Under the pieces are notes generated by a model. The model saw nothing but the letters and a program-made list of their open reading frames with translations. It did no database searches and was not told the DNA's origin. Position numbers and translations under genes: made by a program. From Nemertoderma westbladi (lineage: Eukaryota > Animalia > Xenacoelomorpha), in contig JAUCBJ010000474.1 in the NCBI GenBank assembly GCA_032718475.1, positions 1 to 34,909 of the forward strand: a stretch of 34,909 nt of DNA, read 5' to 3'. Positions 8,857 to 34,909 of this stretch are shown here, in pieces (position 1 is the stretch's first letter; each line of letters opens with the position of its first letter).

Positions 8857-8857
8857 C

Positions 8858-10326: not shown

Positions 10327-10479
10327 GTCCCAAATCGTGCGATGGCGGTGGGGAATCGATATGCAGCGAGTCGGCAAGTTGTATAGACACTTGGGTTACC
10401 CAGGACAACAAGGAAGTCACTCCCGATTGGTATTGCGACTGCAATACTGGTTACTCAGGCAACGGATATCAGTGTAAAA
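10327..10479 (+). CDS. Exon 6, EGF-like domain
   Basis: ttccgcag|...|GTAGGT, phase 1-1. RPKSCDGGGESICSESASCIDTWVTQDNKEVTPDWYCDCNTGYSGNGYQCK (six Cys, CxCxxGYxGxGxxC). Confidence 0.9.
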
Positions 10480-10519
10480 GTAGGTCGAAACGATTCTAGG
10501 TTACGGTTGTTACGGTTGA

Positions 10520-11095
10520 TACTTAATCAAGCACACGATTTTGCACTGGCTGGTCCTCACGGCGAAAGCAATGTCCTGCAAAGCGGAGGCGATTTTGTTC
10601 TAGTGTCAAGCTTGGGGGAACCAATGAGACACCTCCAACAATGAACACAATGAACCCGGCGTAGCATTCTTGTGAATGTGCCATCCAGAGATTTGGTGTC
10701 CTCAGCAGTTAGAGCCCAGCATGGACTCCCATAGAGGAGTACTGAAGCTACTGCTGCTCTAAATAATCGAACCTTAAGTTTCCGATTAGTTCTCGGTGAC
10801 TATCAAATCCTGGAAAGCCTATTCAAGCCTTTCCCATACGTATTCGAAGGTCCTCATCTGACTTCCGGATCCATGATCCCAGGTAACAGAAGTCGTCCAC
10901 ATGCTCAAGCATACCATCCTTTGAGCTTATGCTCATCCGATCAGAGACTTGCTGAGAACTTTCAAAGTTTACTGTCAAAATTTTGGTCTTTCTGGAGTTA
11001 ATAAAAAGACCAACACTAGAAGCAGCCTGTTCTAATGAGCTGAGGAGCTCTAGTGATTCTGAGAGTACTCCTAAGTCATCAGCAAAGTCTATCTT
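10520..11095 (-). mobile_element. Old, degenerate RTE-clade LINE RT fragment (not in ORF track)
   Basis: Hand translation of the minus strand gives DFADDLGVLS (about 11085), LEHVDDFCYLGSWI (about 10890) and RAAVASVLLYGSPCWALT (about 10740), collinear with the RTE at 32762-33417, with stops and frameshifts. Confidence 0.8.
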
Positions 11096-11269
11096 AATAC
11101 GAACTTAACTTAATAACTATAGTTTAGTTTAATAACTATTACAACAATCCAGTTGAGGATATTGTTGGTATAAATTACATGAATTGCACTAGCACAGAAA
11201 TATTGACAATTAAATTTAACAATCTTTACATTCCTGGCACCGCCAAAATATTGGTAACAACATTGCAGT

Positions 11270-13490
11270 GACCGCTACATTATGTACGACAAAGATATTG
11301 GTTAAACACTTAACCCAACAACAGCTGTGGATCCCGCAGCTCAAACGCTCTCAACAAAAACAAAGCCAAATTGTTGGTTTTATCATCAGTGGAAAGGAAC
11401 TTTGTAAGTATAAAGCGATACTTAAGATTGTTGGATTTTGTGTGAACATAACTGGCAGATATTTGCGCCTTAACTCTACATATAAAGGACACTCTAGTAA
11501 AAAATGGTATTCACTTTCCACCATGTTCAAGTTGCAAACTTTACAGATTCGTTGAGCGCGTGAAGTGCGATACCAACGTCCTACTTCTATTTCGAGTTTA
11601 TGAGAAGTACAAAGAAATCTAGCTAAATTTAAGCGCACTGAGATAAGACTCAGCTTCGAATATTCGTTTCACATAGAAATCACCTTTTGGAGAGTTTTGA
11701 ATAGTAGACCACCAGCTCTGGATATACTGATCTGAATAACTTTTTTTGCCGACAGTAACAGTGTATTTACATTTGAGACCTCCTGCGAGTTCCAAGCCCA
11801 ATTTAACGCCAGCCTATTTACCAAACAACGAATTTTTGATGCCCAGTTAGTTGCACCTTTGGTGATTGTATCATCTAGAAGCATTAAATATGCTTGTTTA
11901 ACTAGCCGGGTATTGGGTAGATTAAGTATTCGTACCCAGAATTTTAGAATAGCAACCATACGGTCAAACACAATTGGATAAGTTGCCGTTTCGCCATGTA
12001 CAAAATCAGGTGTAGACATTTTCAGGGATAAACTTTGTTTGGTGAATCTAAGATATATTTTTTCTGTAACTTTTGAATCCTCAAACCCCCAAACCTCAGC
12101 CCCATATAAGTATTGGTTTAATGAGAGAAGAAAATAAATGATTTTTCAATCCAAAATCTACATGAGTGAAGTAGCTTAGATATCCCCGTATAGAAAAACA
12201 CGCTTTATTTGCCTTATCGGCTAATTGATTCTGGGTGATACTAAAGTAACCAGATGGGAGAACGTTATTCCTAGATATGTATACTCTGACACAATCTTCA
12301 TGGGAGCACCGCTAAAGTCCACTTTTCGTCTGCATACGTAAGGGTCCACCTTTCCTAAAAACTACAATATTTGATTTAGTTCTGTAAGCCCCCAGAAAGT
12401 GCAATAATACTCCAAGATGTCGAGTGACCCCTGGAGGCCTTGAACTGAACTGGATACCAACGCAATATCGTCAGCAAAAAGTAAAACTGAAAGTTCCATA
12501 CCCACACCTAGACCAGTAGAATTTCCCTTAGATAATTATAATTCCAAGTCGCTGATGAACAACGAAAATAATAAAGGAGACATGCACTCACCCTGTCTGA
12601 CCCCAATAAGGCAATCGAAGATCTCAGACACCTCACCGTTCCCTCAAACACGAGATTTCGCTTCATCATACATACTTTTAATGATATCATACAACTTGCC
12701 AGAGAATCCAAGGTTACCTAATTTAATCCATAGAGCACTGCGGTCAATTTTATCAAAAGCTTTTTGCAGGTCAATGAACCCGCAATAGATCTTGGTACCC
12801 TTAGAAGAGCCTATATAATGTTCAATGAGTGCACAAAAAGATGATCCGTGGTCCTGTAGCCGGCCCGAAACGCAGCTTGGGACTCAATCAAAATACCGTT
12901 AACGCTGACACCCATCATGTTAATCTAGCGTTTATTAAAGATGTGATTAATTTGCCTAGCACACTGAGAAGAGAAATACCTCGGTAATTATTTGAGTCAT
13001 TTTTGCTTCCCTTTTGTTTATAATTTGGGATAATTTGAGGGCCATTGCGTGGGAAACATACCAGAATACAGTACTGAGTTAAAAATTAATACTACCACCG
13101 GTGACAGGTTTTCCAACCCTTCGAGAAACATCTCGGGGTCAAGCATGTCCGGCCCAGAAGCCTTACCTCGCTTCATATTGCGCATACCTGCTAAAACCTC
13201 ATCCTCACCAAAAGGCTCAGAAAGGAAGTTTTCAAAAAAATTAAGATTTTGCAGATTAGAATTAAGAATTTTTGCAATATTAAGATCTTGAAAGTTTGAA
13301 GAATTACAATCAGATCCAATGTCGATAAAGTCAGAATTAGTTTCCGAATTTAATTGTCGAAAGTGCGATTCAAAATCGTCTATAGATATGTTATTGGACT
13401 GGGGTTTGCTTCCACCTGCTGATGCCTTTAAACGTTTCCAGAATTGCTTGGTTTCATTTACTTTGGCACGCATCAGCTTATTCGATTGGT
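11270..13490 (-). mobile_element. 5'-truncated, frameshifted non-LTR retrotransposon (RT plus C-terminal CCHC finger; RTEX-like, clade tentative)
   Basis: ORF pieces KASGPDMLDPEMF (13018-13473), LLFADDIAL (about 12470) and SHKLEIEVGRW...RICKVC...ESEYHFLLECPLY (11351-11638). Boundaries approximate. Confidence 0.85.
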
Positions 13491-13593
13491 TAGTTTAAAA
13501 TTGTATTTAAATTCTTAATGAAACATTCCAAAGAATGGGCCCATATGAAGTAGAAATATGCGCTATAAAACATTTCAGAAGGATAAATTTAAA

Positions 13594-13627
<34 letters not shown>

Positions 13628-14368
13628 TGTATAAATAATTATTATTATAATTATAAATAAATATTTATATAAAATTACCAATAAATTTTCGACCAAAAAG
13701 TGAAAACCTGGTATACTTTAGGATGAGGGAAATAAAATGTGTAACTTTATTAACTAAAATTTAATTGGAATTATTGGTCAACATGGAACACGGAAATGTA
13801 GATATGAGTCCCTATAATAATAATGAATATATACTATAATTCTCTCTATAATATACTGTCTACTTGTTGTCTATAATACTGGTTACCATGATTACCCATA
13901 AGGTAGGTGAGCCCAATGACTCTGTAATGCAGGTTGCCATGGTTACCCATAAGGTGCGGCTAATGCTTCCATTCACTTTCTCCCAGAGTTGGATTTAATC
14001 CAGAACTTTTTTTTATTCCATGTCGTAGAAAAGCTACGCCGACAGCAGATAACCGACCAAAAAAAACGACTGCCGTCATAAACGTATAAAGAAGCAGGTC
14101 GCATGTGGCAGGTTGTTATAATCAAAACAATAAACGAGGGTCAAAACCGCAGGCTACAGTTCCATTTTTGTTCAAAATAACCGTTGTCGGTTGTCGGTTG
14201 CAGTATCGTTTAGACTCTAATCACTCCAGATAACCAATGGACATAAAATCTTCTCTTATCATTGTAGTAACTACCCGTATTTCAGTGGAGTTCTTTTTTT
14301 TCACCGTCTCCCCTAATCCATCAACCATTTCTAGAAGGTCGGACGGAGCCCTAGCAAATCAAACCTGG

Positions 14369-14438
14369 CCGAATTTTTAAATTTTCAAATTATTTAGTTA
14401 CCATGTAGCTAAATAATTTTGAAAATTTAAAAATCCGG
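14369..14438. repeat. Imperfect ~70-bp palindrome
   Basis: CCGAATTTTTAAATTTTCAAATTATTTAGTTA / TAGCTAAATAATTTTGAAAATTTAAAAATCCGG are near reverse complements around CCATG. Confidence 0.85.
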
Positions 14439-14566
14439 TGAGGCCGGCAGTGAGAAAATATATCGAACTATCTCCATACCAAATTTCGTAGCTTAAATTC
14501 GTAGCTTAAACCAAATTTACGATTGTAATTTGATATTTTTAAATTTTGTATCATTTTGTTTCTTAG

Positions 14567-14771
14567 ATGATTGCGAGGGAGTTTGCAGCAACGGTGGTGA
14601 ATGCCAGTTCGTATCCATGGGAACGCCCATGTGTATCTGTAAGTCTGGTTACCAAGGCGAGACATGTGACGACGAGGTTGCTATCACCGGTTCCGCCTTG
14701 GCTGGTATTGTCGCCGCTATCCTTAGCGGACTCTGTTTACTCGCCGCCATCGTATACTTCATACACGCCCA
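14567..14771 (+). CDS. Exon 7, EGF-like domain plus transmembrane helix
   Basis: tttcttag|...|GTTAGT, phase 1-2. NDCEGVCSNGGECQFVSMGTPMCICKSGYQGETCDDEVAITGS-ALAGIVAAILSGLCLLAAIVYFI-HA. Confidence 0.93.
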
Positions 14772-15095
14772 GTTAGTGGGATAATATATTTTTTATTTAG
14801 ATTTATTTATTTTATTTATTGCCTGAAAAATCGAAACATATTTTTTGATTACAATTAATTATTATAATTATTATTATGTATGTAGTTCAGGGAGAACTCA
14901 AGAAAACAAAAAAATAATTTTTTGTCACTTTTGTCTTCCCGCTCTACATAATAACACCAGTGACGATAGCGCGTCAGTATTTATAAACTGAAATATTAAA
15001 TTCCTGCTCATTTTATTGGACTTGAGTAGCAAAGTTGCTCAATTGCTTTTCTGTTATACATAGTGTACTTATTTGAAATTATTTTACCTTTTTAG

Positions 15096-15441
15096 TATTG
15101 TTTCAAAGAAGGATAAGGAATTGTCGAAATACAAGAAAATTGTTGAATCTAGAGGTCTACGGGGAAGTGGTGCGCCATCTAGTGGAAAAACCCTGGCAAC
15201 ATATCAAGAAGCAACAAAAGGGTCTTCAGCGCCATCTAGAGAAATCACCTCGGCATACAGTAACATGTCATACGATACCACTGGCGATCGACATGGGGTG
15301 TATATCGTGGAAGATAGTGAGGGGGGATCACCGCGGGATGTGGAGAAAGGGAAGTACAAGATGAACGAGCACTACGAGGATGTACATGTACCGAGTAACG
15401 AGTACAAGTCATCGCCTTACACTGGCAGACATTACTTCCAG
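15096..15441 (+). CDS. Exon 8, cytoplasmic tail
   Basis: ttttag|...|GTTAGT, phase 2-0, joins exon 7 in frame. Basic stop-transfer IVSKKDKELSKYKK, then ...AYSNMSY...NEHYEDV...RHYFQ. Confidence 0.88.
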
Positions 15442-18170
15442 GTTAGTAGATTATTGGACATGAATAGGGGGCAGACACTTACATGTTATTAGATTATTGG
15501 ACATGAATTAATAGGGGGCAGACACTTACATGTTACTAGTAGATTAATGGACATGAATAGGGGGCAGACACTTACATGTTATTAGATTATTGGACATGAA
15601 TTAATAGGGGGCAGACACTTACATGTTACTAGTAGATTAATGGACATTAATAGGGGGCAGACACTTTACATGTTATTATATTATTGGACATGAATTAATA
15701 GGGGGCAGACACTTACATGTTAGTAGTAGATTATTGGACATGAATAGGGGGCAGACACTTCTTCCATGTTAGTATTAGATTATTGGACATGAATTAATAG
15801 GGGGCAGACACTTACATGTTATTAGATTATTGGACATGAATTAATAGGGGGCAGACACTTACATGTTACTAGTAGATTAATGGACATTAATAGGGGGCAG
15901 ACACTTTACATGTTATTATATTATTGGACATGAATTAATAGGGGGCAGACACTTACATGTTACTAGTAGATTAATGGACATTAATAGGGGGCAGACACTT
16001 TACATGTTATTATATTATTGGACATGAATTAATAGGGGGCAGACACTTACATGTTAGTAGTAGATTATTGGACATGAATAGGGGGCAGACACTTCTTCCA
16101 TGTTAGTATTAGATTATTGGACATGAATTAATAGGGGGCAGACACTTACATGTTAGTAGTAGATTATTGGACATGAATAGGGGGCAGACTCTTACATGTT
16201 AGTAGTAGATTATTGGACATGAATAGGGGGCAGACACTTACATGTTATTATATTATTGGACATGAATTAATAGGGGGCAGACACTTACATGTTAGTAGTA
16301 GATTATTGGAAATGAATTAATAGGGGGCAGACACTTACATGTTATTAGATTATTGGACATGAATTAATAGGGGGCAGACACTTACATGTTAGTAGTAGAT
16401 TATTGGACATGAATAGGGGGCAGACACTTACATGTTAGTAGTAGATTATTGGACATGAATAGGGGGCAGACACTTACATGTTATTATATTATTGGACATG
16501 AATTAATAGGGGGCAGACACTTACATGTTAGTAGTAGATTATTGGAAATGAATTAATAGGGGGCAGACACTTACATGTTAGAAGTAGATTATTGGACATG
16601 AATAGGGGGCAGACACTTACATGTTATTAGATTATTGGACATGAATTAATAGGGGGCAGACACTTACATGTTAGTAGTAGATTATTGGACATGAATAGTG
16701 GGCAGACACTTACATGTTATTAGATTATTGGACATGAATTAATAGGGGGCAGACACTTACATGTTACTAGTAGATTAATGGACATTAATAGGGGGCAGAC
16801 ACTTTACATGTTATTATATTATTGGACATGAATTAATAGGGGGCAGACACTTACATGTTACTAGTAGATTAATGGACATTAATAGGGGGCAGACACTTTA
16901 CATGTTATTATATTATTGGACATGAATTAATAGGGGGCAGACACTTACATGTTAGTAGTAGATTATTGGACATGGATAGGGGGCAGACACTTCTTCCATG
17001 TTAGTATTAGATTATTGGACATGAATTAATAGGGGGCAGACACTTACATGTTAGTAGTAGATTATTGGACATGAATAGGGGGCAGACTCTTACATGTTAG
17101 TAGTAGATTATTGGACATGAATAGGGGGCAGACACTTACATGTTATTATATTATTGGACATGAATTAATAGGGGGCAGACACTTACATGTTAGTAGTAGA
17201 TTATTGGAAATGAATTAATAGGGGGCAGACACTTCCATGTTAGTAGTAGATTATTGGACATGAATTAATAGGGGGCAGACATTTACATGATAGTAGTAGA
17301 TTATTGGACATGGATAGGGGGCAGACACTTACATGTTAGTAGTAGATTAATGGACATGAATAGGGGGCAGACACTTACATGTTATTAGATTATTGAACAT
17401 GGATAGGGGGCAGACACTTACATGTAGTAGTATATTATTGGACATGGATAGGGGGCAGACACTTACATGTTATTAGATTATTGGACATGAATTAATAGGG
17501 AGCAGACACTTCCATGTTAGTAGTAGATTATTGGACATGAATAGGGGGCAGACACTTCCATGTTAGTAGTAAATTATTGGACATGAATTAATAGGGGGCA
17601 GACACTTACATGTTAGTAGTAGATTAATGGACATTAATAGGGGGCAGACACTTCCATGTTAGTAGTAGATTATTGGACATGAATAGGGGGCAGACACTTC
17701 CATGTTAGTAGTAAATTATTGGACATGAATTAATAGGGGGCAGACACTTACATGTTAGTAGTAGATTAATGGACATTAATAGGGGGCAGACACTTACATG
17801 TTATTAGATTATTGAACATGAATAGGGGGCAGACACTTACATGTTATTATATTATTGGACATGAATTAATAGGGGGCAGACACTTCCATGTTAGTAGTAG
17901 ATTATTGGACATGAATTAATAGGGGGCAGACATTTACATGATAGTAGTAGATTATTGGACATGGATAGTGGGCAGACACTTACATGTTAGTAGTAGATTA
18001 ATGGACATGAATAGGGGGCAGACACTTACATGTTATTAGATTATTGAACATGAATAGGGGGCAGACACTTACATGTTCTTAGATTATTGAACATGAATTG
18101 GGGGCTCAGACACTTATATATATGTTAGTAAATTATTATTGGACATGAATAATAGGGGTAGACCTTACGT
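15442..18170. repeat. ~43-50-bp minisatellite (roughly 55-60 units) filling almost the whole last intron
   Basis: Unit is about GTTAGTAGTAGATTATTGGACATGAA(TTAA)TAGGGGGCAGACACTTACAT, with block-wise duplications of variants. Confidence 0.97.
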
Positions 18171-19705: not shown

Positions 19706-20102
19706 TACTTTATACTACTCTATAAATACTACCTACTTTATACTACTCTATAAATACTACCTACTTTATACTACTCTATAAATACTACCTACTTTATACT
19801 ACTGTATATAAATACTACCTACTTTATACTACTCTATAAATACTACCTACTTTATACTACTCTATAAATACTACCTACTTTATACTACTCTATAAATACT
19901 ACCTACTTTATACTACTCTATAAATACTACCTACTTTATACTACTGTATAAATACTACCTACTTTATACTACTGCGTAAATACTACCTACTTTATACTAC
20001 TGTATAAATACTACCTACTTTATACTACTGTATAAATACTACCTACTTTATACTACTGCGTAAATACTACCTACTTTATACTACTCTATAAATACTACCT
20101 AC
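19706..20102. repeat. 28-bp minisatellite, about 14 units (array A)
   Basis: Unit TACTTTATACTACT(C/G)TATAAATACTACC. Confidence 0.97.
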
Positions 20103-20118
20103 ACTATTTTTGTACATT

Positions 20119-20395
20119 ATACTACTACTACTACTAGGTCGAGCGAACTCGGACAGTGGAAATGAGATCCTTCCAGGCTTCCCGATTCTCTATAGTTGTC
20201 GCAATTTCGTTTCTCCCAAGTTCAGTATCCCTTTCAAGTTGATCTATATATGTTATGGCCGGTCGCCCACGACTACGCTTTCCATGAGTTGGTTGCCAGA
20301 GAAGTAGATCTGGTATGACCTCGTCTTTACTTCGCCAACAGTGCCCACTGAATCTTAATCTGCGTTCACGGAGGGTGGCTGATACAGGTGATACA
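20119..20395 (-). mobile_element. 3' end of RTE-clade LINE with (TAG)n tail
   Basis: RRLRFSGHCWR...WQPTHGKRSRGRP...NREAW is an RTE-type C-terminus. The stop runs directly into TAGTAGTAG. Confidence 0.88.
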
Positions 20396-20404
20396 GGTTG
20401 ATAC

Positions 20405-20867
20405 GATGATTTAAGCAAGCAAATGTCCAGTGCTGATGTAGGTTGCGTTATTGATGGAACCAGGATTAATCACCTTGGTTACGCTGATGACTTATGTTTA
20501 ATTTCAAACTCTATTTTTGGTTTACAGTACTTAATAGATATATGTGTTACTTACGCAAAAGGTAATTCTATAACTTTCAATATAAAGAAAAGTAAGTGTT
20601 TATATTTGTATCCTAAGGGGTCGACAATTATTTGTCGCCCTAGTGTTTATCTTAACGGCTCTCCTATTGAAGTCGTTGAGAAGTTTAATTATCTTGGCCA
20701 TATTGTACACAGTACTTTAGATGACGACTACGATATCAGGAATCAAACTTGTAAGCTTTATTCTGGGGGTAATTTTTTGATTCGCAAATTCGGTTCATGC
20801 CCTGTCCCCGTTAAAGTTACTTTATTTCGTGCATATTGTACACCGTTATATTGCAATGCTCTTTGGG
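20405..20867 (+). mobile_element. Internal RT fragment of a different non-LTR family, opposite orientation
   Basis: INHLGYADDLCLI...FNIKKSKC...EKFNYLGH...VKVTLFRAYC. No tail and no TSD. Confidence 0.88.
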
Positions 20868-21976
20868 CATGAATTCGGTCTTTGTAGCATTTATATGCAA
20901 TCCAACCTCCTTAGCAGCCCTCTCCACTTTATTTAGTAGAAACTGTGCATCTGCTAGCGTATTAGAGAGCAGGGCGATGTCATCCGCAAAGTCGGTGTCT
21001 GTGACTGTAGTTGCCAGATATCTACTACTTCTGCGTTCTTGAAGTGTGAATCCCAGATCTTCACCCTTTGTGGCCGTCCTCATTGCGTAATCCAGCACAA
21101 TTACAAATAGTAATGGTGCTAATGTGTCACCTTGCAGTACGCCAGCCAGGATTGAGAAAAACTCAGTTTCACCATCTGGTGTGAGTACCTGCGCTTCTGT
21201 GTCACAATATAACAATCCAATGCCAACAACAATTACTTTGGTATTCCATAAGCTCTTAGGATTTCAAGCATTTTACCTCTATGGATGGAGTCGAATGCCT
21301 TCTTGAACTCCACAAAAGTAATGACTGCGGGGAGATTCTTTGACTTAATTCCTTCAATCAGTCTCCGTAGTGCAAGTATCTGAGCTATTGTTGATCTACT
21401 TGGTCGAAATCCGTTTTGGCTCTTACGCAGTAGTTTCTCTATGTGAGGCCTAATCCTATATAGAATCATTTTATTGTATATTTTGGCAGCTACCACAAGC
21501 AGACAGATCCCACGATAGTTTGTTGGTATGCCGAGGTCTCCTTTCTTGGGGAGAGGCTTTAGTTGACCTTTAGTCCAAATTGGTGGTGGCTTTTCCCCTT
21601 TTAACACCCGGTTGCAAACATTCAATAATGGTCTGTTTAGCACTCCGGTTTTCCATACCTCCGCTGGGATTTCATCTAATCCACTCGCTTTATTATTGGA
21701 CATGCTTTTAATGCTTCTTTGGAGTTCGGCAGGTGTGAAGTCCCCTGTTTCTATAGGTAGTGTCTTGTCATATATTTTCCTCGATGTTTGGTGGCTGCCC
21801 AAGCAAGTTGCTGAAGTGATTTTTCCACTTCCGAACAAGTTCTTCAGGACTATCGGCTTTGAGGCGCCCCTTTGCACAACTTTTCCGACCAGATACCTCA
21901 TTTACAGTTTGCCATGTAAGTCTTCTTGATTGTTGCTGTATGTGAGCAGTTGTAATTGCTTCAGTTTTATCCTGTA
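20868..21976 (-). mobile_element. RTE LINE RT region, duplicate copy 1 (frameshifted); continues at 24512-24602
   Basis: KASGLDEIPAE, NYRGICLL, QNGFR, GVLQGDTLAP, DFADDIALL. Matches 33070-34178 at offset 12202. Confidence 0.95.
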
Positions 21977-23242
21977 CGAGAAAGGCATTTCCTAAAGGAA
22001 ATGCAACCACGAAGCTAAGGAAAATTAAACAAACGGCCACACTTTGGTTCGTTGCTTAGCCTCATTAAGTAGCAATTGTCAATAATTAACTTCTATTCTC
22101 ATGGAAACTAGAGTTCTCTGGAACTGTTGCTTTAACCTTTGAAAAAAGTTCAGTAGAGATTGTGATTCAGATAACACATATACTGAGTTTCAGAAAATAT
22201 TGTAGTTTATGTCCCAATTACCAATTTTCTATCAAAATGCATCTGTTTGCAGTGGTTGTCATGGAAACTGGAAAATAGAACAATGTAATTCGGATGCAGA
22301 ATAAGTCATATAGTGGGGGTAGGGGTTAGTCCCAAGTCATAATACTATTAACTTGTGCTTCAAATTATCATTTTATATATTTTAACATCTGTTTAGACTT
22401 GTTGCTATGGTAACTGTATTTTCTAATTAACCTCAAACGGCTTGGATATGGATCTTATAGATGAGTTGCAAAACCCCAAGTTTATATATATTACAGTTTT
22501 GCTACAAATAGAGTTATCAATATAGATTTGAATGATATAGAGTTTAATAAACTACAGTTACCATGGTAACTAAATTTCTGGAATAATTTAAGTTTCACTA
22601 AAAGTTCCAACTAGTGGTCCAGATAACACATACCCAGTTTTGTAAAATTTTATCGTGAAGTCTATGTCCAAATGAATAAGTTTTGAATAAAAACATCTGT
22701 TTTCAGCGGTTGTCATGGTAATTGAAAAATAGAACAATGTAATTCAGATGCAGAATAAGTTATATAGTGGGGGTAGGGGTTGGTCCCAAGTCATAACACC
22801 TTGCCCTTAGGCCTCAAATTAACATTTTATAAATTTTAACATCTGTTTATCCCGGTTGCCAAGGTAACTGGATTTTCTATTTAGCCTCAATCGGATCTGC
22901 TATGGACCTTATAGTTGTGTTGCGAAACCCCAAGTTTATATCTATTATAGTTTTCCTACAAATAGAGTTATAAATATTGACTTGAAATACATAGACTTTT
23001 TTTGAAGTCCGTTGCCATGGAAACCAGATTTTTCCTGGATATGAGACCCGGCCCAAAAGATGCGCCTTGTCGAGTAGTATATACATGCAAAATTTCAGGG
23101 TACTTTTAAAGGCTAGTTTTTTCCCCGACCAAAAAACCCCAAATCTGCCCCATACAAGTAAAATAGCCCACTATGAATAGACCATCTCAGCTAAGGAAAA
23201 TCTTTCTTAGCGAAAGTAGTTGATTTTCCTTAGCTTCGTGTA
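21977..23242 (-). mobile_element. Non-autonomous Helitron-like element copy 1 (CTCG end, 1266 bp)
   Basis: Minus-strand 3' end is hairpin GCATTTCCTTTAGGAAATGC then CTTTCTCG. Empty site at 34178/34179. The 5' terminus reads TACACG instead of TCCACG. Confidence 0.85.
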
Positions 23243-24511
23243 CTAGAAAGGCATTTCCTAAAGGAAATGCAACCACGAAGCTAAGGAAAATTAAACAAAG
23301 GGCCATAATTTGGTTTGTTGCTTAGCCTAGTTTAGTAGCATTTGCCAATAAATAACTTATATTCCCATGGATACTAGAATTCTCTGGAACTGTTGGTTTT
23401 ACCTTTGAAAAAAGATTCAGTCCAGATTGTGGTTCAGATAACACATACCAAGTTTCAGAAAATATTGTAGTTTATGTCCAAATTACCGATTTTCTATCAT
23501 AATGCATCTGTTTGCAGTGGTTGTCATGGAAACTGAAAAATAGAACAATGTAATTCGGATGCAGAATAAGTCATATAATGGGGGTAGGTCTTGGTCCCAA
23601 GTCATAATACTATTAACTTGTGTTTCAAATTATCATTTTAGAAATTTTAACATCTGTTTAGTCTTGTTGCTATGGTAATTGGATTGTGTAATTAACCTCG
23701 AATGGATTGTATATGGACCTTACAGATGACTTGCAAAACCCCAAATTTAAATTTATTACATTATTTTGCTGCAAATAGAGTATTGAATTTAGACTTGAAT
23801 GATATCGACTTTAATAAACTCCAGTTACCATGGTAACAAGATATTTATGGAATGTTTTAGGTTTTACTAAAAGTTTCAACTAGTGGTCCAGATAACACAT
23901 ATCCAATTTCGTAAAATTTTATCGCGAAGTCTATGTCCAAATGAGTTATTTTTGTATAAAAACATCTGTTTTCAGCGGTTGTCATGGTAACTGCAAAATT
24001 AAACAATGAAATTCGGACGCAGAATAAGTCATATAGTGGGGGTAGGGGTTGGTCCCAAGACATAACACATTAACCTTAGGCTTCAAATTAACATTTTATA
24101 AATTTTAACATCTGTTTAGCCCGGTTGCCAAGGTAACTGGAATTTCTATTTAACCTCAATCGGCTCTGCTATGGACCTTATAGTTGAGTTGAGAAATCCC
24201 AAGTTTATATGTATTATAGTTTTCCTACAAATAGAGTTATAAATATTGACTTGAAATACATAGACTTTTTTCTAAGTCCGTTGCCATGGAAACCAGATTT
24301 TTCCTGAATATGAGACCCATCCCACACGACGCGCCTCGATGAGTAGTACATACATGCAAAATTTCAGGGTACTTTTAAAGGCTAGTTTTTTCCCCGACCA
24401 AAAAAAACCAAATCTGCCTCATACAAGTAAAATAGCCCACTATGAATAGACCATCTCAGCTAAGGAAAATCTTTCTTAGCGAAAGTAGTTGATTTTCCTT
24501 AGCTTCGTGGA
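23243..24511 (-). mobile_element. Helitron-like element copy 2 (CTAG end, 1269 bp)
   Basis: 5' TCCACG...hairpin-CTAG 3' on minus strand. Abuts copy 1. No TSD. Confidence 0.85.
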
Positions 24512-24602
24512 TGTACTTTTCGTGGCTGATGTTGTAGGCCAATTTAAGATCGTCCTTAGCTTTCTCAACCTTGTTAATGTTTTCAGTTGTTGGTTGTTGT
24601 TG
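24512..24602 (-). mobile_element. 5'-most remnant of RTE copy 1
   Basis: Identical by eye to 34179-34269. Confidence 0.9.
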
Positions 24603-24655
24603 TATAAATACTACCTACTTTATACTACTCTATAAATACTACCTACTTTATACTA

Positions 24656-25901
24656 CTAGAAAGGCATTTCCTAAAGGAAATGCAACCACGAAGCTAAGGA
24701 AAATTAAACACTCTTTGACTCATCAGTTCATTGATTTACCGAGTTAAAAGAACTCCCGGTATTGCCAAGGTAACTGGACTTTTCTAGAAATGCTGAGTTT
24801 TACATTAAGATCTAGTTTGTGGTTCCAGGTGATACATCGACTTCAAGGAAGCTTCATTGAGTAGTTTATGTGCAAAATTAATTATTAATTTGTTAAAAAG
24901 TCTGTTTGCAGTGGTTGTCAAGGTAACTGGCAAATAGAACAACGTAGATTGGATGCAGAATAAGTGATATTATGGTGGTAGGGGTTGGTCCCAAGTCATA
25001 ATGCCTTTAACTTGTGTTTCTAATTATAATTTTTTAAATTATAACATCTGTTTAGCCTGGTTACCAAGGTAACTGGATTTTCTAATTAACCACAATTGGC
25101 TCCTCTAAGGACCTTCCTTATAGTTGAGTTGGGAAACCCAATATTTATATCTAATACAGTTTTCCTACAAACAAGAGTTAAAAATATAGACTTGAATGAT
25201 ATTGACTTTAATAAGCTCCAGTTACCATGGTAACTATATATTTCTGGAATGTTTTGAGTTTCACTAAAAGTTCCAACTAGTGATCCAGTAACACATACCC
25301 ATTTTCATAAAATTTTATAATGAAGTCTATGTCCAAATGAGTAATTTTTGCATAGAAACATCTGTTTTCATCGGTTGTCATGGTAACTGCAAAATTAAAC
25401 AATGAAATTCGGACGCAGAATAAGATATATAGTGGGGGTAGGGGTTGGTCCCAAGACATAACACCTTAACCTTAGGCTTCAAATTAACTTTTGCTTGCTT
25501 GCTTTTTAGCCCAGTTGCCAAGGTAACTGGATTTTCTATTTAACCTCAATCGGCTCTGCTATGGACCTTATAGTTGAGTTGCGAAACCCCAAGTTTATAT
25601 CTATTATAATTTTCCTACAAATAGAGTTATAAATATTGACTTGAAATACATAGACTTTTTTCTAAGTCCGTTACCATGGAAACCAGATTTTTCCTGGATA
25701 TGAGACCCATCCCACACGACGCGCCTTGATGAGTAGTATATACATGCAAAATTTTAGGGTACTTTTAAAGGCTAGTTTTTTCACCGGTCAAAAAACACTA
25801 AATCTGCTCCATACAAGTAAAATAGCCCACTATGAATAGACCATATCAGCTAAGGAAAATCTTTCTTAGCGAAAGTAGTTGATTTTCCTTAGCTTCGTGG
25901 A
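24656..25901 (-). mobile_element. Helitron-like element copy 3 (CTAG end, 1246 bp, divergent subfamily)
   Basis: Same termini. Segment 24710-24900 differs strongly from the other copies. Confidence 0.85.
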
Positions 25902-25915
25902 CTGTATAAATACTA

Positions 25916-27182
25916 CGAGAAAGGCATTTCCTAAAGGAAATGCAACCACGAAGCTAAGGAAAATTAAACAAACGGCCACACTTTGGTTCGTTGCTTAGCC
26001 TCGCTTAGTAGCAATTGTCAATAATTAACTTCTATTCCCATGGAAACTAGAGTTCTCTGGAACTGTTGCTTTAACCTTTGAAAAAAAATTCAGTACAGAT
26101 TGTGGTTCAGATAACACATATACTGAGTTTCAGAAAATATTGTAGTTTATGTCCAGATTACCGATTTTCTATCAAATTGCATCTGTTTGCAGTGGTTGTC
26201 ATGGAAACTGAAAAATAGAACAATGTAATTCGGATGCAGAATAAGTCATATTGTGGGGGTAGGGGTTAGTCCCAAGTCATAATACTATTAACTTGTGCTT
26301 CAAATTATCATTTTATAAATTTTAACATCTGTTTAGACTTGTTGCTATGGTAACTGTATTTTCTAATTAACCTCAAACGGCTTGGATATGGATCTTATAG
26401 ATGAGTTGCAAAACCCCAAGTTTATATATATTACAGTTTTGCTACAAATAGAGTTATCAATATAGATTTGAATGATATAGAGTTTAATAAACTACAGTTA
26501 CCATGGTAACTAAATTTCTGGAATAATTTAAGTTTCACTAAAAGTTCCAACTCGTGGTCCAGATAACACATACCCAGTTTTGTAAAATTTTATCGTGAAG
26601 TCTATGTCCAAATGAATAAGTTTTGAATAAAAACATCTGTTTTCAGCGGTTGTCATGGTAACTGAAAAATAGAACAATGTAATTCGGATGCAGAATAAGT
26701 TATATAGTGGGGGTAGGGGTTGGTCCCAAGTCATAACACCTTAACCTTAGGCTTCAAATTAACATTTTATAAATTTTAACATCTGTCTAGCCCGGTTGCC
26801 AAGGTAACTGGATTTTCTATTTAACCTCAATCGGCTCTGCTATGGACCTTATAGTTGTGTTGAGAAACCCCAAGTTTATATCTATTATAGTTTTCCTACA
26901 AATAGAGTTTTAAATATTGACTTGAAATACATAGACTTTTTTCTAAGTCCGTTGCCATGGAAACCAGATTTTTCCTGGATATGAGACCCAGCCCAAAAGA
27001 TGCGCCTCGACGAGTAGTATATACATGCAAAATTTCAGGGTACTTTTAAAGGCTAGTTTTTTCACCTATCAAAAAAAACCAAATCTGCCTCACACAAGTA
27101 AAATAGCCCACTATGAATAGACCATCTCAGCTAAGGAAAATCTTTCTTAGCGAAAGTAGTTGATTTTCCTTAGCTTCGTGGA
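25916..27182 (-). mobile_element. Helitron-like element copy 4 (CTCG end, 1267 bp)
   Basis: Same termini. Identical by eye to copy 7. Confidence 0.85.
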
Positions 27183-27270
27183 CCTACTTTATACTACTGT
27201 ATAAATAATACCTACTTTATACTACTGTATAAATACTACCTACTTTATACTACTGTATATATACTACCTA

Positions 27271-28533
27271 CTAGAAAGGCATTTCCTAAAGGAAATGCAA
27301 CCACGAAGCTAAGGAAAATTAAACAAACGGCCACAATTTGGTTCGTTGCTTAGACTAGTTTAGTAGCATTTGCCAATAAATAACTTCTATTCCCATGGAA
27401 ACTAGAGTTCTCTGGAACTGTTGGTTTTACCTTTGAAAAAAGATTCAGTCCAGATTGTTTTTCAGATAACACATCGAGTTTCAGAAAATATTGTAGTTTA
27501 TGTCCAAATTACAGATTTTCTATCAAAATGCATCTGTTTGCAGTGGTTGTCATGGAAACTGAAAAATAGAACAATGTAATTCGGATGCAGAATAAGTCAT
27601 ATAGTGGGGGTAGGTGTTGGTCCCAAGTCATAATACTATTAAATTGTGCTTCAAATTATCATTTTATTAATTTTAACATCTGTTTACTCTTGTTGCTATG
27701 GTAAATGGATTTTCTAATTAACTTCGAACGGCTTGTATATGGACCTTATAGATGAGTTACAAAACCCCAAGTTTATATATATTACAGTTTTGCTAGAAAT
27801 AGAGTTATCAATATAGACTTGAATGATATAGAGTTTAATAAACTACAGTTACCATGGTAACTAAATTTCTGGAATGATTTAAGTTTCACTAAAAGTTCCA
27901 ACTAGTGGTGCAGATAACACATACCCAGTTTTGTAAAATTTTATCGCGAAGTCTATGTCCAAATGAATAATTTTTGTATAAAAACATCTGTTTTCGGCTG
28001 TTGTCATGGTAACTGAAAAATAGAACAATGTAATTCGGATGCAGAATAAGTTATATAGTGGGGGTAGGGGTTGGTCTCAAGTCATAACACCTTGCCCTTA
28101 GGCCTCAAATTATCATTTTATAAATTTTAACATCTGTTTATCCCGGTTGCCAACGTAACTGGATTTTCTATTTAGCCTCAATCGGATCTGCTATGGACCT
28201 TATAGTTGTGTTGCAAAACCCCAAGTTTAAATCTATTATAGTTTTCCTACAAATAGAGTTATAAATATTGACTTGAAATACATAGACTTTTTTTGAAGTC
28301 CGTTGCCATGGAAACCAGATTTTTCCTGGATATGAGACCCGGCCCAAAAGATGCGCCTCGCCGAGTAGTATATACATGCAAAATTTCAGGGTACTTTTAA
28401 AGGCTAGTTTTTTCGCCTATCAAAAAACCCCAAATCTGCCTCACACAAGTAAAATAGCCCACTATGAATAGACCATCTCAGCTAAGGAAAATCTTTCTTA
28501 GCGAAAGTAGTTGATTTTCCTTAGCTTCGTGGA
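27271..28533 (-). mobile_element. Helitron-like element copy 5 (CTAG end, 1263 bp)
   Basis: Same termini. Identical by eye to copy 6. Confidence 0.85.
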
Positions 28534-28548
28534 CTTTATACTACTGTA

Positions 28549-29811
28549 CTAGAAAGGCATTTCCTAAAGGAAATGCAACCACGAAGCTAAGGAAAATTAA
28601 ACAAACGGCCACAATTTGGTTCGTTGCTTAGACTAGTTTAGTAGCATTTGCCAATAAATAACTTCTATTCCCATGGAAACTAGAGTTCTCTGGAACTGTT
28701 GGTTTTACCTTTGAAAAAAGATTCAGTCCAGATTGTTTTTCAGATAACACATCGAGTTTCAGAAAATATTGTAGTTTATGTCCAAATTACAGATTTTCTA
28801 TCAAAATGCATCTGTTTGCAGTGGTTGTCATGGAAACTGAAAAATAGAACAATGTAATTCGGATGCAGAATAAGTCATATAGTGGGGGTAGGTGTTGGTC
28901 CCAAGTCATAATACTATTAAATTGTGCTTCAAATTATCATTTTATTAATTTTAACATCTGTTTACTCTTGTTGCTATGGTAAATGGATTTTCTAATTAAC
29001 TTCGAACGGCTTGTATATGGACCTTATAGATGAGTTACAAAACCCCAAGTTTATATATATTACAGTTTTGCTAGAAATAGAGTTATCAATATAGACTTGA
29101 ATGATATAGAGTTTAATAAACTACAGTTACCATGGTAACTAAATTTCTGGAATGATTTAAGTTTCACTAAAAGTTCCAACTAGTGGTGCAGATAACACAT
29201 ACCCAGTTTTGTAAAATTTTATCGCGAAGTCTATGTCCAAATGAATAATTTTTGTATAAAAACATCTGTTTTCGGCTGTTGTCATGGTAACTGAAAAATA
29301 GAACAATGTAATTCGGATGCAGAATAAGTTATATAGTGGGGGTAGGGGTTGGTCTCAAGTCATAACACCTTGCCCTTAGGCCTCAAATTATCATTTTATA
29401 AATTTTAACATCTGTTTATCCCGGTTGCCAACGTAACTGGATTTTCTATTTAGCCTCAATCGGATCTGCTATGGACCTTATAGTTGTGTTGCAAAACCCC
29501 AAGTTTAAATCTATTATAGTTTTCCTACAAATAGAGTTATAAATATTGACTTGAAATACATAGACTTTTTTTGAAGTCCGTTGCCATGGAAACCAGATTT
29601 TTCCTGGATATGAGACCCGGCCCAAAAGATGCGCCTCGCCGAGTAGTATATACATGCAAAATTTCAGGGTACTTTTAAAGGCTAGTTTTTTCGCCTATCA
29701 AAAAACCCCAAATCTGCCTCACACAAGTAAAATAGCCCACTATGAATAGACCATCTCAGCTAAGGAAAATCTTTCTTAGCGAAAGTAGTTGATTTTCCTT
29801 AGCTTCGTGGA
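28549..29811 (-). mobile_element. Helitron-like element copy 6 (CTAG end, 1263 bp)
   Basis: Same termini. Lies 15 bp from copy 5. Confidence 0.85.
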
Positions 29812-29983
29812 TATAAATACTACCTACTTTATACTACTGTATATAAATACTACCTACTTTATACTACTGCGTACATACTGCCTACTTTATACTACTGTAT
29901 AAATACTACCTACTTTATACTACTCTATAAATACTACCTACTTTATACTACTGTATAATTACTACCTACTTTATACTACTGTA

Positions 29984-31250
29984 CGAGAAAGGCATTTCCT
30001 AAAGGAAATGCAACCACGAAGCTAAGGAAAATTAAACAAACGGCCACACTTTGGTTCGTTGCTTAGCCTCGCTTAGTAGCAATTGTCAATAATTAACTTC
30101 TATTCCCATGGAAACTAGAGTTCTCTGGAACTGTTGCTTTAACCTTTGAAAAAAAATTCAGTACAGATTGTGGTTCAGATAACACATATACTGAGTTTCA
30201 GAAAATATTGTAGTTTATGTCCAGATTACCGATTTTCTATCAAATTGCATCTGTTTGCAGTGGTTGTCATGGAAACTGAAAAATAGAACAATGTAATTCG
30301 GATGCAGAATAAGTCATATTGTGGGGGTAGGGGTTAGTCCCAAGTCATAATACTATTAACTTGTGCTTCAAATTATCATTTTATAAATTTTAACATCTGT
30401 TTAGACTTGTTGCTATGGTAACTGTATTTTCTAATTAACCTCAAACGGCTTGGATATGGATCTTATAGATGAGTTGCAAAACCCCAAGTTTATATATATT
30501 ACAGTTTTGCTACAAATAGAGTTATCAATATAGATTTGAATGATATAGAGTTTAATAAACTACAGTTACCATGGTAACTAAATTTCTGGAATAATTTAAG
30601 TTTCACTAAAAGTTCCAACTCGTGGTCCAGATAACACATACCCAGTTTTGTAAAATTTTATCGTGAAGTCTATGTCCAAATGAATAAGTTTTGAATAAAA
30701 ACATCTGTTTTCAGCGGTTGTCATGGTAACTGAAAAATAGAACAATGTAATTCGGATGCAGAATAAGTTATATAGTGGGGGTAGGGGTTGGTCCCAAGTC
30801 ATAACACCTTAACCTTAGGCTTCAAATTAACATTTTATAAATTTTAACATCTGTCTAGCCCGGTTGCCAAGGTAACTGGATTTTCTATTTAACCTCAATC
30901 GGCTCTGCTATGGACCTTATAGTTGTGTTGAGAAACCCCAAGTTTATATCTATTATAGTTTTCCTACAAATAGAGTTTTAAATATTGACTTGAAATACAT
31001 AGACTTTTTTCTAAGTCCGTTGCCATGGAAACCAGATTTTTCCTGGATATGAGACCCAGCCCAAAAGATGCGCCTCGACGAGTAGTATATACATGCAAAA
31101 TTTCAGGGTACTTTTAAAGGCTAGTTTTTTCACCTATCAAAAAAAACCAAATCTGCCTCACACAAGTAAAATAGCCCACTATGAATAGACCATCTCAGCT
31201 AAGGAAAATCTTTCTTAGCGAAAGTAGTTGATTTTCCTTAGCTTCGTGGA
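29984..31250 (-). mobile_element. Helitron-like element copy 7 (CTCG end, 1267 bp)
   Basis: Same termini. Identical by eye to copy 4. Confidence 0.85.
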
Positions 31251-31410
31251 TAAATACTACCTACTTTATACTACTCTATAAATACTACCTACTTTATGCT
31301 ACTCTATAAATACTACCTACTTTATACTACTCTATAAATACTACCTACTTTATACTACTGCGTAAATACTGCCTACTTTATACTACTTTATAAATACTAC
31401 CTACTTTATA

Positions 31411-32659
31411 CTAGAAAGGCATTTCCTAAAGGAAATGCAACCACGAAGCTAAGGAAAATTAAACAAAGGGCCACAATTTGGTTTGTTGCTTAGCCTAGTT
31501 TAGTAGCATTTGCCAATAATTAACTTCTATTCCCATGGAAACTAGAGTTCTCTGGAACTGTTGGTTTTACCTTTGAAAAAAAGATTCAGTCCAGATTGTG
31601 GTTTAGATAACACATACCAAGTTTCAGAAAATATTGTAGTTTAGGTCCAAATTACCGATTTTCTATCAAAATGCATCTGTTTGCAGTGGTTGTCATGGAA
31701 ACTGAAAAATAGAACAATGTAATTCGGATGCAGAATAAGTCATATAGTGGGGGTAGGTGTTGGTCCCAAGTCATAATACTATTAAATTGTGCTTCAAATT
31801 ATCATTTTATAAATTTTAACATCTGTTTAGTCTTATTGCTATGGTAACTGGATTTTCTAATTAACCTCGAACGGCTTGGATATGGACCTTATGAGTTGCA
31901 AAACCCCACGTTTATATATATTACAGTTCTGCTACAAATGGAGTTATGAATATAGACTTGAATAAACATCAGTTACCATGGTAACTATATATTTCTGGAA
32001 TGTTTTCAGTTTCACTAAAAGTTCCAACTAATGGTACAGATAACACATTCCCAGTTTCGTAACATTTTATCGCGAAGTCTATGTCCAAATGAGTAATTTT
32101 TATATAAAAACATCTGTTTTCAGCGGTTGTCATGGTAACTGCAAAATATAACAATGAAATTCGGACGCAGAATAAGTAATATAGTGGGGGTAGGGGTTGG
32201 TCCCAAGTCATAACACCTTAACCTTAGGCTTCAAATTAACATTTTATAAATTTTAACATCTGTTTAGCCCGGTTGCCAAGGTAACTGGATTTTCTATTTA
32301 ACCTCAATCGGCTCTGCTATGGACCTTATAGTTGAGTTGAGAAACCCCAAGTTTATATCTATTATAGTTTTCCTACAAATAGAGTTATAAATATTGACTT
32401 TAAATACATAGACGTTTTTCTATGTTCGTTACCATGGAAACCAGATTTTTCCTGGATATGAGACCCAGCCCAAAAGATGCGCCTCGACGAGTAGTATATA
32501 CATGCAAAAATTCAGGGTACTTTTAAAGGCTAGTTTTTTCACCGGTCAAAAAACACTAAATCTGCTCCATACAAGTAAAATAGCCCACTATGAATAGACC
32601 ATCTCAGCTAAGGAAAATCTTTCTTAGCGAAAGTAGTTGATTTTCCTTAGCTTCGTGGA
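31411..32659 (-). mobile_element. Helitron-like element copy 8 (CTAG end, 1249 bp)
   Basis: Same termini. Empty site at 34771/34772. Confidence 0.85.
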
Positions 32660-32761
32660 CTACTCTATAAATACTACCTACTTTATACTACTGTATAAAT
32701 ACTATCTACTTTATACTACTGTATACTACTGTATAAATACTGCCTACTTTATACTACTGTA

Positions 32762-34269
32762 CTTAGTAGTCTTGTGTAGCAACCATGAATTCGTTGTTCA
32801 AGTGATTTAGTCAGTGTCCAGGTCTCACCCCCGTATAAAAATACACTTTCCACTGTGGCTCGAAAGAACTTAGGTGCCTGGTGCAGGTGCCTGGAGAGAT
32901 CTGATTTCCAGATGGTATCCATTTTTGATAGAGCTACCCAAGCCTTTGCTTTCCTAACTTCTATGTCCTTTTTGCTACTCTCTATCCATGATCCAAGGTA
33001 CTGGAAGTCATCGACCTTCCTTAGTTGATTATTATCAATGGTTGTCAAGTTCCCATCAACATTAAAGGTCATGAATTCGGTCTTTGTAGCATTTATATGC
33101 AATCCAACCTCCTTAGCAGCCCTCTCCACTTTATTTAGTAGAAACTGTGCATCTGCTAGCGTATTAGAGAGCAGGGCGATGTCATCCGCAAAGTCGGTGT
33201 CTGTGACTGTAGTTGCCAGATATCTACTACTTCTGCGTTCTTGAAGTGTGAATCCCAGATCTTCACCCTTTGTGGCCGTCCTCATTGCGTAATCCAGCAC
33301 AATTACAAATAGTAATGGTGCTAATGTGTCACCTTGCAGTACGCCAGCCAGGATTGAGAAAAACTCAGTTTCACCATCTGGTGTGAGTACCTGCGCTTCT
33401 GTGTCACAATATAACAATCCAATGCCAACAACAATTACTTTGGTATTCCATAAGCTCTTAGGATTTCAAGCATTTTACCTCTATGGATGGAGTCGAATGC
33501 CTTCTTGAACTCCACAAAAGTAATGACTGCGGGGAGATTCTTTGACTTAATTCCTTCAATCAGTCTCCGTAGTGCAAGTATCTGAGCTATTGTTGATCTA
33601 CTTGGTCGAAATCCGTTTTGGCTCTTACGCAGTAGTTTCTCTATGTGAGGCCTAATCCTATATAGAATCATTTTATTGTATATTTTGGCAGCTACCACAA
33701 GCAGACAGATCCCACGATAGTTTGTTGGTATGCCGAGGTCTCCTTTCTTGGGGAGAGGCTTTAGTTGACCTTTAGTCCAAATTGGTGGTGGCTTTTCCCC
33801 TTTTAACATCCGGTTGCAAACATTCAATAATGGTCTGTTTAGCACTCCGGTTTTCCATACCTCCGCTGGGATTTCATCTAATCCACTCGCTTTATTATTG
33901 GACATGCTTTTAATGCTTCTTTGGAGTTCGGCAGGTGTGAAGTCCCCTGTTTCTATAGGTAGTGTCTTGTCATATATTTTCCTCGATGTTTGGTGGCTGC
34001 CCAAGCAAGTTGCTGAAGTGATTTTTCCACTTCCCAACAAGTTCTTCAGGACTATCGGCTTTGAGGCGCCCCTTTGCACAACTTTTCCGACCAGATACCT
34101 CATTTACAGTTTGCCATGTAAGTCTTCTTGATTGTTGCTGTATGTGAGCAGTTGTAATTGCTTCAGTTTTATCCTGTATGTACTTTTCGTGGCTGATGTT
34201 GTAGGCCAATTTAAGATCGTCCTTAGCTTTCTCAACCTTGTTAATGTTTTCAGTTGTTGGTTGTTGTTG
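32762..34269 (-). mobile_element. RTE LINE RT region, duplicate copy 2 (uninterrupted, same frameshifts)
   Basis: ORFs 33435-34103 and 32749-33417 (DFADD, DDFQYLGSWI, FLYGGETWTLT). Truncated at both ends against the minisatellite. Confidence 0.95.
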
Positions 34270-34909
34270 TATAAATACTACCTACTTTATACTACTCTAT
34301 AAATACTACCTACTTTATACTACTGTATAAATACTACCTACTTTATACTACTGTATAAATAATACCTACTTTATACTACTGTATAAATACTACCTACTTT
34401 ATACTACTGTATATATACTACCTACTTTATACTACTGTATATAAATACTACCTACTTTATACTACTGTATATAAATACTACCTACTTTATACTACTGCGT
34501 ACATACTGCCTACTTTATACTACTGTATAAATACTACCTACTTTATACTACTCTATAAATACTACCTACTTTATACTACTGTATAATTACTACCTACTTT
34601 ATACTACTGTATAAATACTACCTACTTTATACTACTCTATAAATACTACCTACTTTATGCTACTCTATAAATACTACCTACTTTATACTACTCTATAAAT
34701 ACTACCTACTTTATACTACTGCGTAAATACTGCCTACTTTATACTACTTTATAAATACTACCTACTTTATACTACTCTATAAATACTACCTACTTTATAC
34801 TACTGTATAAATACTATCTACTTTATACTACTGTATACTACTGTATAAATACTGCCTACTTTATACTACTGTATAAATACTGCCTACTTTATACTACTTT
34901 ATAAATACT
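34270..34909. repeat. 28-bp minisatellite array C (empty twin of array B), runs off window
   Basis: Same unit and same order of variant units as array B. Confidence 0.97.

Follow-up and report, generated by a model that had tools for sequence, protein, structure and literature searches.

Eight same-strand Helitron-like insertions in one of two near-identical host copies in Nemertoderma westbladi

How a Helitron finds and enters its target is an open question, and work on reconstituted elements has mostly defined the donor side. A stretch of DNA from the xenacoelomorph Nemertoderma westbladi (assembly GCA_032718475.1, contig JAUCBJ010000474.1, positions 1 to 34,909 of the forward strand; all 34,909 nucleotides are called the window below) offers a natural experiment: identical targets lie side by side, and one was struck eight times by Helitron-like elements, all on one strand, while the other was never struck. 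What set the struck copy apart from its twin? Both copies contain part of a long interspersed element (LINE), and the eight insertions are numbered E1 to E8.

20868 to 32761, no strand: X', the invaded copy, a LINE reverse-transcriptase fragment and a 28-bp minisatellite, 1,804 host bases broken by E1 to E8
33070 to 34873, no strand: X, the empty twin, in which LINE sequence runs to about 34265 and the minisatellite starts at about 34268
21977 to 23242, minus strand: E1, a non-autonomous Helitron-like element that abuts E2, with CTCG at the 3' end and an unusual TA at the 5' end
23243 to 24511, minus strand: E2, 5' TC, 3' CTAG, with 22-nt asymmetric inverted repeats, a 14-nt 5' inverted repeat and an 8-bp 3' hairpin
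24656 to 25901, minus strand: E3, the most divergent copy, 14.6-16.1% from the other seven
25916 to 27182, minus strand: E4, 1,267 bp, identical to E7, 3' end CTCG
27271 to 28533, minus strand: E5, 1,263 bp, identical to E6
28549 to 29811, minus strand: E6, identical to E5, with 15 host bases between the two
29984 to 31250, minus strand: E7, identical to E4
31411 to 32659, minus strand: E8

When E1 to E8 are deleted in silico from 20868-32761, the remainder matches the twin at 33070-34873 without a gap over 1,804 bp, with two mismatches (21607/33809 and 21833/34035). The nine host pieces of X' measure 1109, 0, 144, 14, 88, 15, 172, 160 and 102 bp, which sum to 1,804 bp, and in twin coordinates the insertion points are 34178 (both E1 and E2), 34322, 34336, 34424, 34439, 34611 and 34771. 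Elements of 1,246 to 1,269 bp have thus added 10,090 bp within 593 bp of original DNA. All eight element starts and all eight ends lie on one strand. As the reconstruction is gapless, the insertions left neither a target duplication nor a loss of flanking sequence; the terminal TA of E1 can alternatively be read as a 2-base target duplication. A preliminary description of the window had claimed each of these things, from the restoration of the twin and the two substitutions to the amount of added DNA, the clean flanks and the shared orientation, and the reconstruction bears it out. At the point where E1 abuts E2 (23241-23244), the final bases of E1 are TA in place of GA.

Read on the minus strand, seven of the eight elements start with TC (E1 has TA), and they end in CTAG (five) or CTCG (three), eight bases past an 8-bp hairpin. 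The asymmetric inverted repeats of E2 are 22 nt long and 95% complementary (23273-23294 and 24489-24510), with one arm terminal and the other 30 nt inside. At its 5' end a perfect 14-nt inverted repeat is nested with the subterminal repeat, and a stem-loop lies at the 3' end; the folds have z=-5.7 and z=-3.7. The elements hold internal diverged units about 450 bp apart with 77-81% identity. There is no open reading frame of 100 or more amino acids inside 21977-32659, one frame of E1 read through its stops has no Pfam match, and the element end motif has 0 exact matches in the metagenome contigs searched for relatives or an autonomous partner. All seven distinct insertion sites follow TA; on the element strand, TA is cut on the 5' side of its T, which follows A at three sites and G at four.

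This layout matches that of HINE/DINE-1 and Helitron2 elements (PMC4067079, PMC7492417, PMC11417382; these and the other papers given by PMC number are cited from excerpts). Like HINEs and the HLE2 group, the elements have asymmetric inverted repeats, a 5' inverted repeat, a 3' stem-loop and central tandem units, are non-coding and make no target duplication; unlike them, they do not use T|T, since the seven sites are all TA and none is TT. Compared with canonical Helitrons (HLE1), the 5' TC is present in seven of eight, and the position of the 3' CTRR after the hairpin is taken by CTAG in five and CTCG in three, with the hairpin present. The HLE1 target A|T is found at only three of seven sites, the other four being G|T, and the 22-nt repeats of E2 depart from the HLE1 rule of no terminal inverted repeats. 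The element behaves as a Helitron does and is a non-coding Helitron-like element with Helitron2/HINE-type (HLE2-type) ends; strict membership of HLE2, and which strand is transferred, hinge on the autonomous partner. The earlier assignment as Helitron-like is supported.

Did the eight elements come from one source? According to the preliminary description they differ from each other far more than the host copies do and came from several donors. Of the 28 possible pairs, 26 differ by 3.1-16.1%, but E4/E7 and E5/E6 have 0 differences, so the first claim holds for all except these two pairs. With the pairs at 100% identity there are six distinct sequences among the eight insertions, in agreement with several donors. 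Only E1 and E2 directly abut, and they differ by 8.9%. Tandem amplification of an element with its spacer was rejected, as it would have duplicated host bases and the reconstruction contains no such duplicates. A rolling-circle concatemer array does not fit either, given six sequences and host pieces kept in the order of the twin. An origin of E1 as a simple local chimera of E4 and E5 was rejected as well, since 12 of its substitutions are private and mosaicism seems to run through the whole family. Along 21977-32659 the nearest relative of each of the six sequences shifts along its length, a pattern pointing to recombination or template switching in the family.

To place the insertions in time, two more LINE sequences are needed.

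1 to 557, minus strand: older copy of the LINE of X and Y with 80-82% identity, serving as outgroup and without insertion at the E1/E2 site
32762 to 33069, minus strand: Y, LINE sequence in frame with X, missing from the left copy

The twins have diverged by 0.11% (95% interval 0.013-0.40%), with 0 changes in the 606 bp of minisatellite. By the outgroup, both substitutions are derived in X' and ancestral in X, and the E1/E2 site was ancestrally empty. There are at least 10 positions (at least 0.8%) in X where most or all contigs from the population differ and where the window letter is common to X and X', and therefore the LINE copy is much older than the split of the twins. An old locus with such a low twin divergence implies a long insertion-free period followed by eight insertions within 0.11% divergence. 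That these occurred after or during the split, as had been proposed, is supported.

The order could in principle be the reverse: the cluster formed first, and the twin arose when all eight elements were precisely removed, perhaps cut out and resealed along a single displaced strand. Footprint-free somatic excision of Helitrons is described in maize (PMC10095026), and elements on the same strand might be removable in a single pass. However, eight clean excisions are required, the twin retains Y, which the filled copy lacks, as well as the ancestral base at both substitutions, and the formation of the cluster is left unexplained. We consider this origin of the twin very improbable.

Can the sequence of the target explain the choice? 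The minisatellite consists of 28% TA, and six of the seven sites lie in it, as TA density predicts (p=0.31); a gradient of insertion density away from the right end of X' was tried and is unneeded, as TA density accounts for the six minisatellite sites. The class CTGTA|T makes up 2% of minisatellite positions and is used by three of the seven sites (p=0.007). This makes it conceivable that the minisatellite, being strand-asymmetric, acts as a standing hot spot and imposes orientation through its favoured, one-stranded sites, and that the duplication joined a filled allele to an empty one. Telomeric repeats fix the orientation of Paramecium Helitrons in this manner (PMC13085455). However, E1 and E2 sit in LINE sequence without strand asymmetry, and both the twin and a second array nearby are empty.

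19706 to 20102, no strand: array A, 28-bp minisatellite as in X, no insertions, left flank found in sample S1

An exact search for the end motif found no further element copy in the window, array A and the twin included, where 112 and 245 uninvaded TA sites are present, respectively. A steady hot spot common to two lineages yields an 8:0 split with p=0.008, and nothing had gathered here in the long period before the twins split. A standing hot spot is for these reasons unlikely, and the earlier statement that sequence preference alone is insufficient is upheld by the empty twin, the empty array A and the 8:0 split. The odds of co-orientation had been put at 1/128 (0.008). After weighting for avoidance of G after TA they become 0.016-0.037, with weights from a rough, by-eye tally of 13 flanks in contigs of other individuals, in which the family apparently avoids G after TA.

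Elsewhere in the window a (TTGTA)231 array (2758-3913, 99% pure) is empty of elements. A lone TTGTA unit with an element on either side occurs at raised depth in contigs of other individuals, and TTGTA arrays may be further targets of the element.

The reading we favour, with a probability of roughly one half, is that a tract which was single-stranded for a short time took up the eight elements serially, within one brief episode linked to the duplication. One strand of the X' tract would have been unpaired, presumably the minus strand, provided that the hairpin marks the 3' end, as it does in HINEs. Loaded RepHel transposases, supplied by at least six donors of which two contributed twice, would have reached the exposed strand one after another and joined element strands 5' of the T in TA sites along it, and the intact partner strand would have served as template for the empty copy. 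The single strand could have come from host break repair, with the resection or BIR of the preliminary description as candidates, from a stalled fork or from unwinding by the element's own helicase.

Several properties of related enzymes are in line with this proposal. Single-stranded DNA is the substrate of HUH nucleases, which work on it with a fixed polarity and create no target duplication; a Helitron donor moves only one of its strands and is used repeatedly, being amplified through double-stranded circles (PMC5876387). For IS200/IS605 elements, orientation is set by the exposed lagging-strand template and stalled forks are preferred (reviewed in PMC5371812). DNA structure has been proposed as the signal for target choice of Helitrons (PMC8788227). 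Further, no local hopping was seen in 701 events of Helraiser (PMC4778049); together with the two identical pairs this favours repeated delivery from amplified donors. A short episode on an exposed strand accounts jointly for the asymmetry of the twins, the orientation and the identical pairs.

Is the pattern peculiar to this locus? Contigs from runs X1 to X4, which represent three samples of this organism (X2 and X3 come from a single one) with 0.48-0.70 of words shared, were placed on 32400-34330 and 24457-24710; runs X5 to X7, with a word share of at most 0.13, were left out. All ten listed joints placed on 24457-24710 are same-direction, the 5' end of one element facing the 3' end of another. 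Among the listed joints, contigs with same-direction joints number 7, 11, 9 and 0 in X1, X2, X3 and X4, so that two of the three samples hold same-direction pairs 0-39 bp apart. No joint with a change of strand is present among those listed for X1 to X4, which are filtered records. The 12 listed of 15 spacer entries include nine distinct spacers of 5-39 bp flanked by intact ends and one flanked by truncated ends; three further entries are direct head-to-tail joins. Random placement predicts about 0.01-1.8 pairs within 40 bp, assuming 400-3,000 copies in 200-500 Mb. Close co-oriented insertion is thus a habit of the family, of which this locus is the extreme case, and pairs may form without a duplication.

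Such a habit is also what self-reinforcing homing would produce. Here a first insertion in X' would bind RepHel or expose nearby single strand whenever it serves as donor, and later copies would land alongside in the same orientation over many generations. Once the first insertion has broken the symmetry, the empty twin is explained, and the identical pairs E4/E7 and E5/E6 could be local hops. By eye, three of the nine spacers between intact ends correspond to sequence from inside the element lying between TA sites, and a number of loose flanks resemble the element; maize Helitrons, as cited in a review (PMC12477314), insert near other Helitrons. Two of the three matching spacers have the same direction and one the opposite, so a resident copy alone does not set orientation. 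Under preferential attachment, with about 20% of insertions homing, 1.3 in 1,000 clusters would reach eight members, a figure that counts against a single episode, but with 5% homing 0.001 in 1,000 would. At least about 20% of all insertions must therefore home, the fraction being an assumed one and the short time window not yet counted. Moreover, at least six outside donors must have settled on this cluster out of a great many resident copies, the twins do not differ in their minisatellite, and Helraiser lacks local hopping (PMC4778049). We regard homing over generations, the main rival, as possible but as the less probable course of events.

Other observations also weigh against serial insertion in one episode. 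The simultaneity of the eight insertions is presumed in the proposal. The orientation signal at this locus alone is modest (0.016-0.037), and part of the co-orientation stems from the favoured sites being one-stranded, with CTGTA|T occurring 13 times forward and 0 times in reverse in the minisatellite. There are 2 host substitutions against 0 in 2,530 bp of paired elements (p=0.06), and the identical element pairs may be younger than the duplication. The close pairs in other individuals have no duplication seen beside them, and the lack of opposite-direction joints may reflect the instability of close inverted copies (PMC3855049), their loss from libraries or contigs, or the filtering of records. 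One contig of run X2, at depth 33.9, carries the rare E1/E2-type join; it cannot be placed at this locus, and the E1/E2 pair could be shared with another individual. Finally, the literature searched, as far as the excerpts go, gave no Helitron integration into long single-stranded targets in cells.

What kind of duplication was it? The order at the locus is array A, a likely LINE 3' end, a fragment Z, X', Y, X and the rest of a second array, C.

20120 to 20397, minus strand: likely 3' end, with a (TAG)n tail, of the LINE family to which X and Y belong
20402 to 20867, plus strand: Z, fragment of a different LINE (RVT_1), cut off at join J1
20860 to 20912, no strand: join J1 (20867/20868), second LINE fragment joined to X'
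32757 to 32806, no strand: join J2 (32761/32762), minisatellite cut at a CTGTA|T site and joined to Y without exact microhomology

The preliminary description had called this a fresh duplication. The copies are indeed near-identical, but the duplication is not a plain tandem one, since Z is followed by X', then Y, then X, and no Y accompanies the left copy. The LINE of X and Y is very abundant, and its other copies in the population contigs read differently before 32762 and after 34265, which makes these positions the true ends of this LINE fragment. We take 20120-20397 to be the 3' end of a LINE of the same family because of its RTE-type motifs; it has no Pfam match. Arrays A and C share unit types, and it is probable that they formed a single minisatellite until the LINE divided it. 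The two arrays (19706-20140 and 34266-34909) appear to flank one LINE, and the (TAG)n tail resembles the purine-rich strand of the minisatellite, which suggests that the LINE inserted into a single ancestral array. A 9-bp direct repeat (20379-20401) is found where the LINE 3' end joins fragment Z.

The joins also bear on whether the arrangement is real, as 32761/32762 could be a library or assembly chimera of two alleles or paralogues, in which case no fresh duplication exists, or the filled copy a rare somatic molecule. The window begins in a repeat and finishes inside a minisatellite, and no listed contig of other individuals bridges J2, the join of E2 with the LINE or that of LINE and minisatellite; such contigs cannot show absence and count neither way. 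Against a chimera, the window contains no N, and J2 offers an assembler no overlap, as the sequence that other copies of the LINE have at this point is unrelated. In either case the eight precise insertions and their empty counterpart would still be real. An artefact at this join seems quite improbable.

The joins further raise the question whether the transposase made its own target, with duplication and insertion shower as one rolling-circle event. In this scheme RepHel would nick the minisatellite at the favoured CTGTA|T site at 34873/34874, the helicase would peel off the minus strand with host synthesis rebuilding the empty copy behind it, and eight loaded elements would be pasted into the peeled strand. 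Joining by Rep at two cryptic element-like 3' ends (32762 and 33070) would then fix the product as a duplication. J2 belongs to the CTGTA|T class, 2% of minisatellite positions, and lacks exact microhomology. The first 28 bases of Y include a 10/11 match to the element 3' end, and just inside J1 lies the best local match to it in 1.46 kb of LINE, where J2 ranks third. The breakpoints are in the top 3.7% and 2.0% of LINE positions for this likeness, and neither 46 interior queries nor 120 shuffled queries gave a control equal to both. In about 12% of events Helraiser runs past its own end and terminates at a new one (PMC4778049). The site class of J2, the element-like breakpoints and this read-through together suggest that the transposase peeled the strand and made the duplication, and that both new substitutions lie in the invaded copy is counted towards the same reading.

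The likeness is weak, and its tests are post hoc, having been devised after the sequence was seen. With a 35-base window the likeness at J1 weakens to p of about 0.25, and with a 35-base query that at J2 to 0.17-0.34. Hairpins at the breakpoints are not significant (z -0.46 and -0.01), and neither the element 5' end nor the reverse strand of the 3' end shows likeness to the breakpoints. A self-made target is for us a tentative, rather doubtful extension of the proposal. If true, Helitrons would have their own form of kataegis, in which a single step adds 10 kb of new DNA.

How does the locus compare with known systems? It resembles the non-autonomous Helentrons HINE/DINE-1 (HLE2; for instance Cg_HINE of the Pacific oyster) in its subterminal inverted repeats, 5' inverted repeat and 3' stem-loop (PMC4067079, PMC7492417), and in having central tandem units, no coding capacity and no target duplication. 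It differs in its TA instead of TT target, in ends of the form TC...CTAG as in canonical Helitrons, and in that no microsatellite was noticed near the 5' end of the element. The Helitron2 elements FoHeli1/2 and FoHeli4 of Fusarium oxysporum (PMC5148889) have asymmetric inverted repeats, hairpins at both ends and a 5' TC; FoHeli1/2 insert between T and A, close to the target rule here, one FoHeli4 copy lies 2 bp from another, and self-insertion occurs. In contrast, the excerpts describe single close pairs only and no eight-member cluster with an empty twin, and the 3' end is ATTTT.

Canonical Helitrons (Helraiser, maize, plant and bat arrays) share the 5' TC, the 3' hairpin followed by CTAG (in five of the eight elements here), the absence of target duplication, head-to-tail joints and a tendency to adjoin other Helitrons. 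However, their concatemer arrays come from one donor and have no ordered host spacers, whereas here there are six sequences and the host order is kept, and Helraiser is without local hopping (PMC4778049). Paramecium Helitrons insert repeatedly into a strand-asymmetric tandem repeat with absolute orientation bias, but they use a standing target at all chromosome ends, while here identical neighbouring sequence is untouched (PMC13085455). IS200/IS605 elements combine HUH chemistry, a single-stranded target, orientation by the exposed strand and a preference for stalled forks, all of which is proposed here; they are bacterial, have no helicase and choose targets by guides, and no dense multi-donor cluster is described in the excerpts (PMC5371812). 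Active P, hobo and R1 families form same-site or adjacent dimers, but these are pairs at one site that keep the target duplication in the joint (PMC5932611). The strand coordination of kataegis-like clustered mutagenesis is found at this locus.

Helitrons near Helitrons, head-to-tail arrays, the close FoHeli4 pair, strand-fixed insertion in Paramecium and double insertions of other transposons are thus already known from the excerpts. A multi-donor, same-strand Helitron cluster dated by an empty twin was not found in the literature searched, most matches being judged by title or the start of the abstract. We conclude that this is a real and striking feature from a known kind of element, new in its behaviour and with a plausible and testable, but so far hypothetical, mechanism.

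The locus points to the state of the DNA, not its sequence, as the targeting signal, which would account for the long-known clustering of Helitrons close to one another. Serial pasting into an exposed strand would show how Helitron-like elements choose their targets. If the insertions were one episode, transposons can arrive as strand-coordinated showers tied to rearrangements, and insertion counts are not counts of independent events. As the family is abundant and has close pairs in other individuals, the question is directly testable.

The rearranged region lies about 4 kb beyond the apparent last coding exon of a multi-exon plus-strand gene (2570-15420) with cysteine-rich repeats. Its exon at 9695-9850 matches PF07699 (ephrin receptor-like, E=1e-12), and by eye there are EGF-like and transmembrane-like exons near 10329-10478 and 14570-14770. 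Four more long minisatellites are present at 748-2260, 6503-8857, 8858-9517 and 15444-18158, with units of 63, 43, 39 and 46/93 bp, and tandem repeats make up about a quarter of the window. A decayed LINE-like element, seen as pieces of open reading frame of which one is without a Pfam match, lies on the minus strand inside an intron at 11351-13494.

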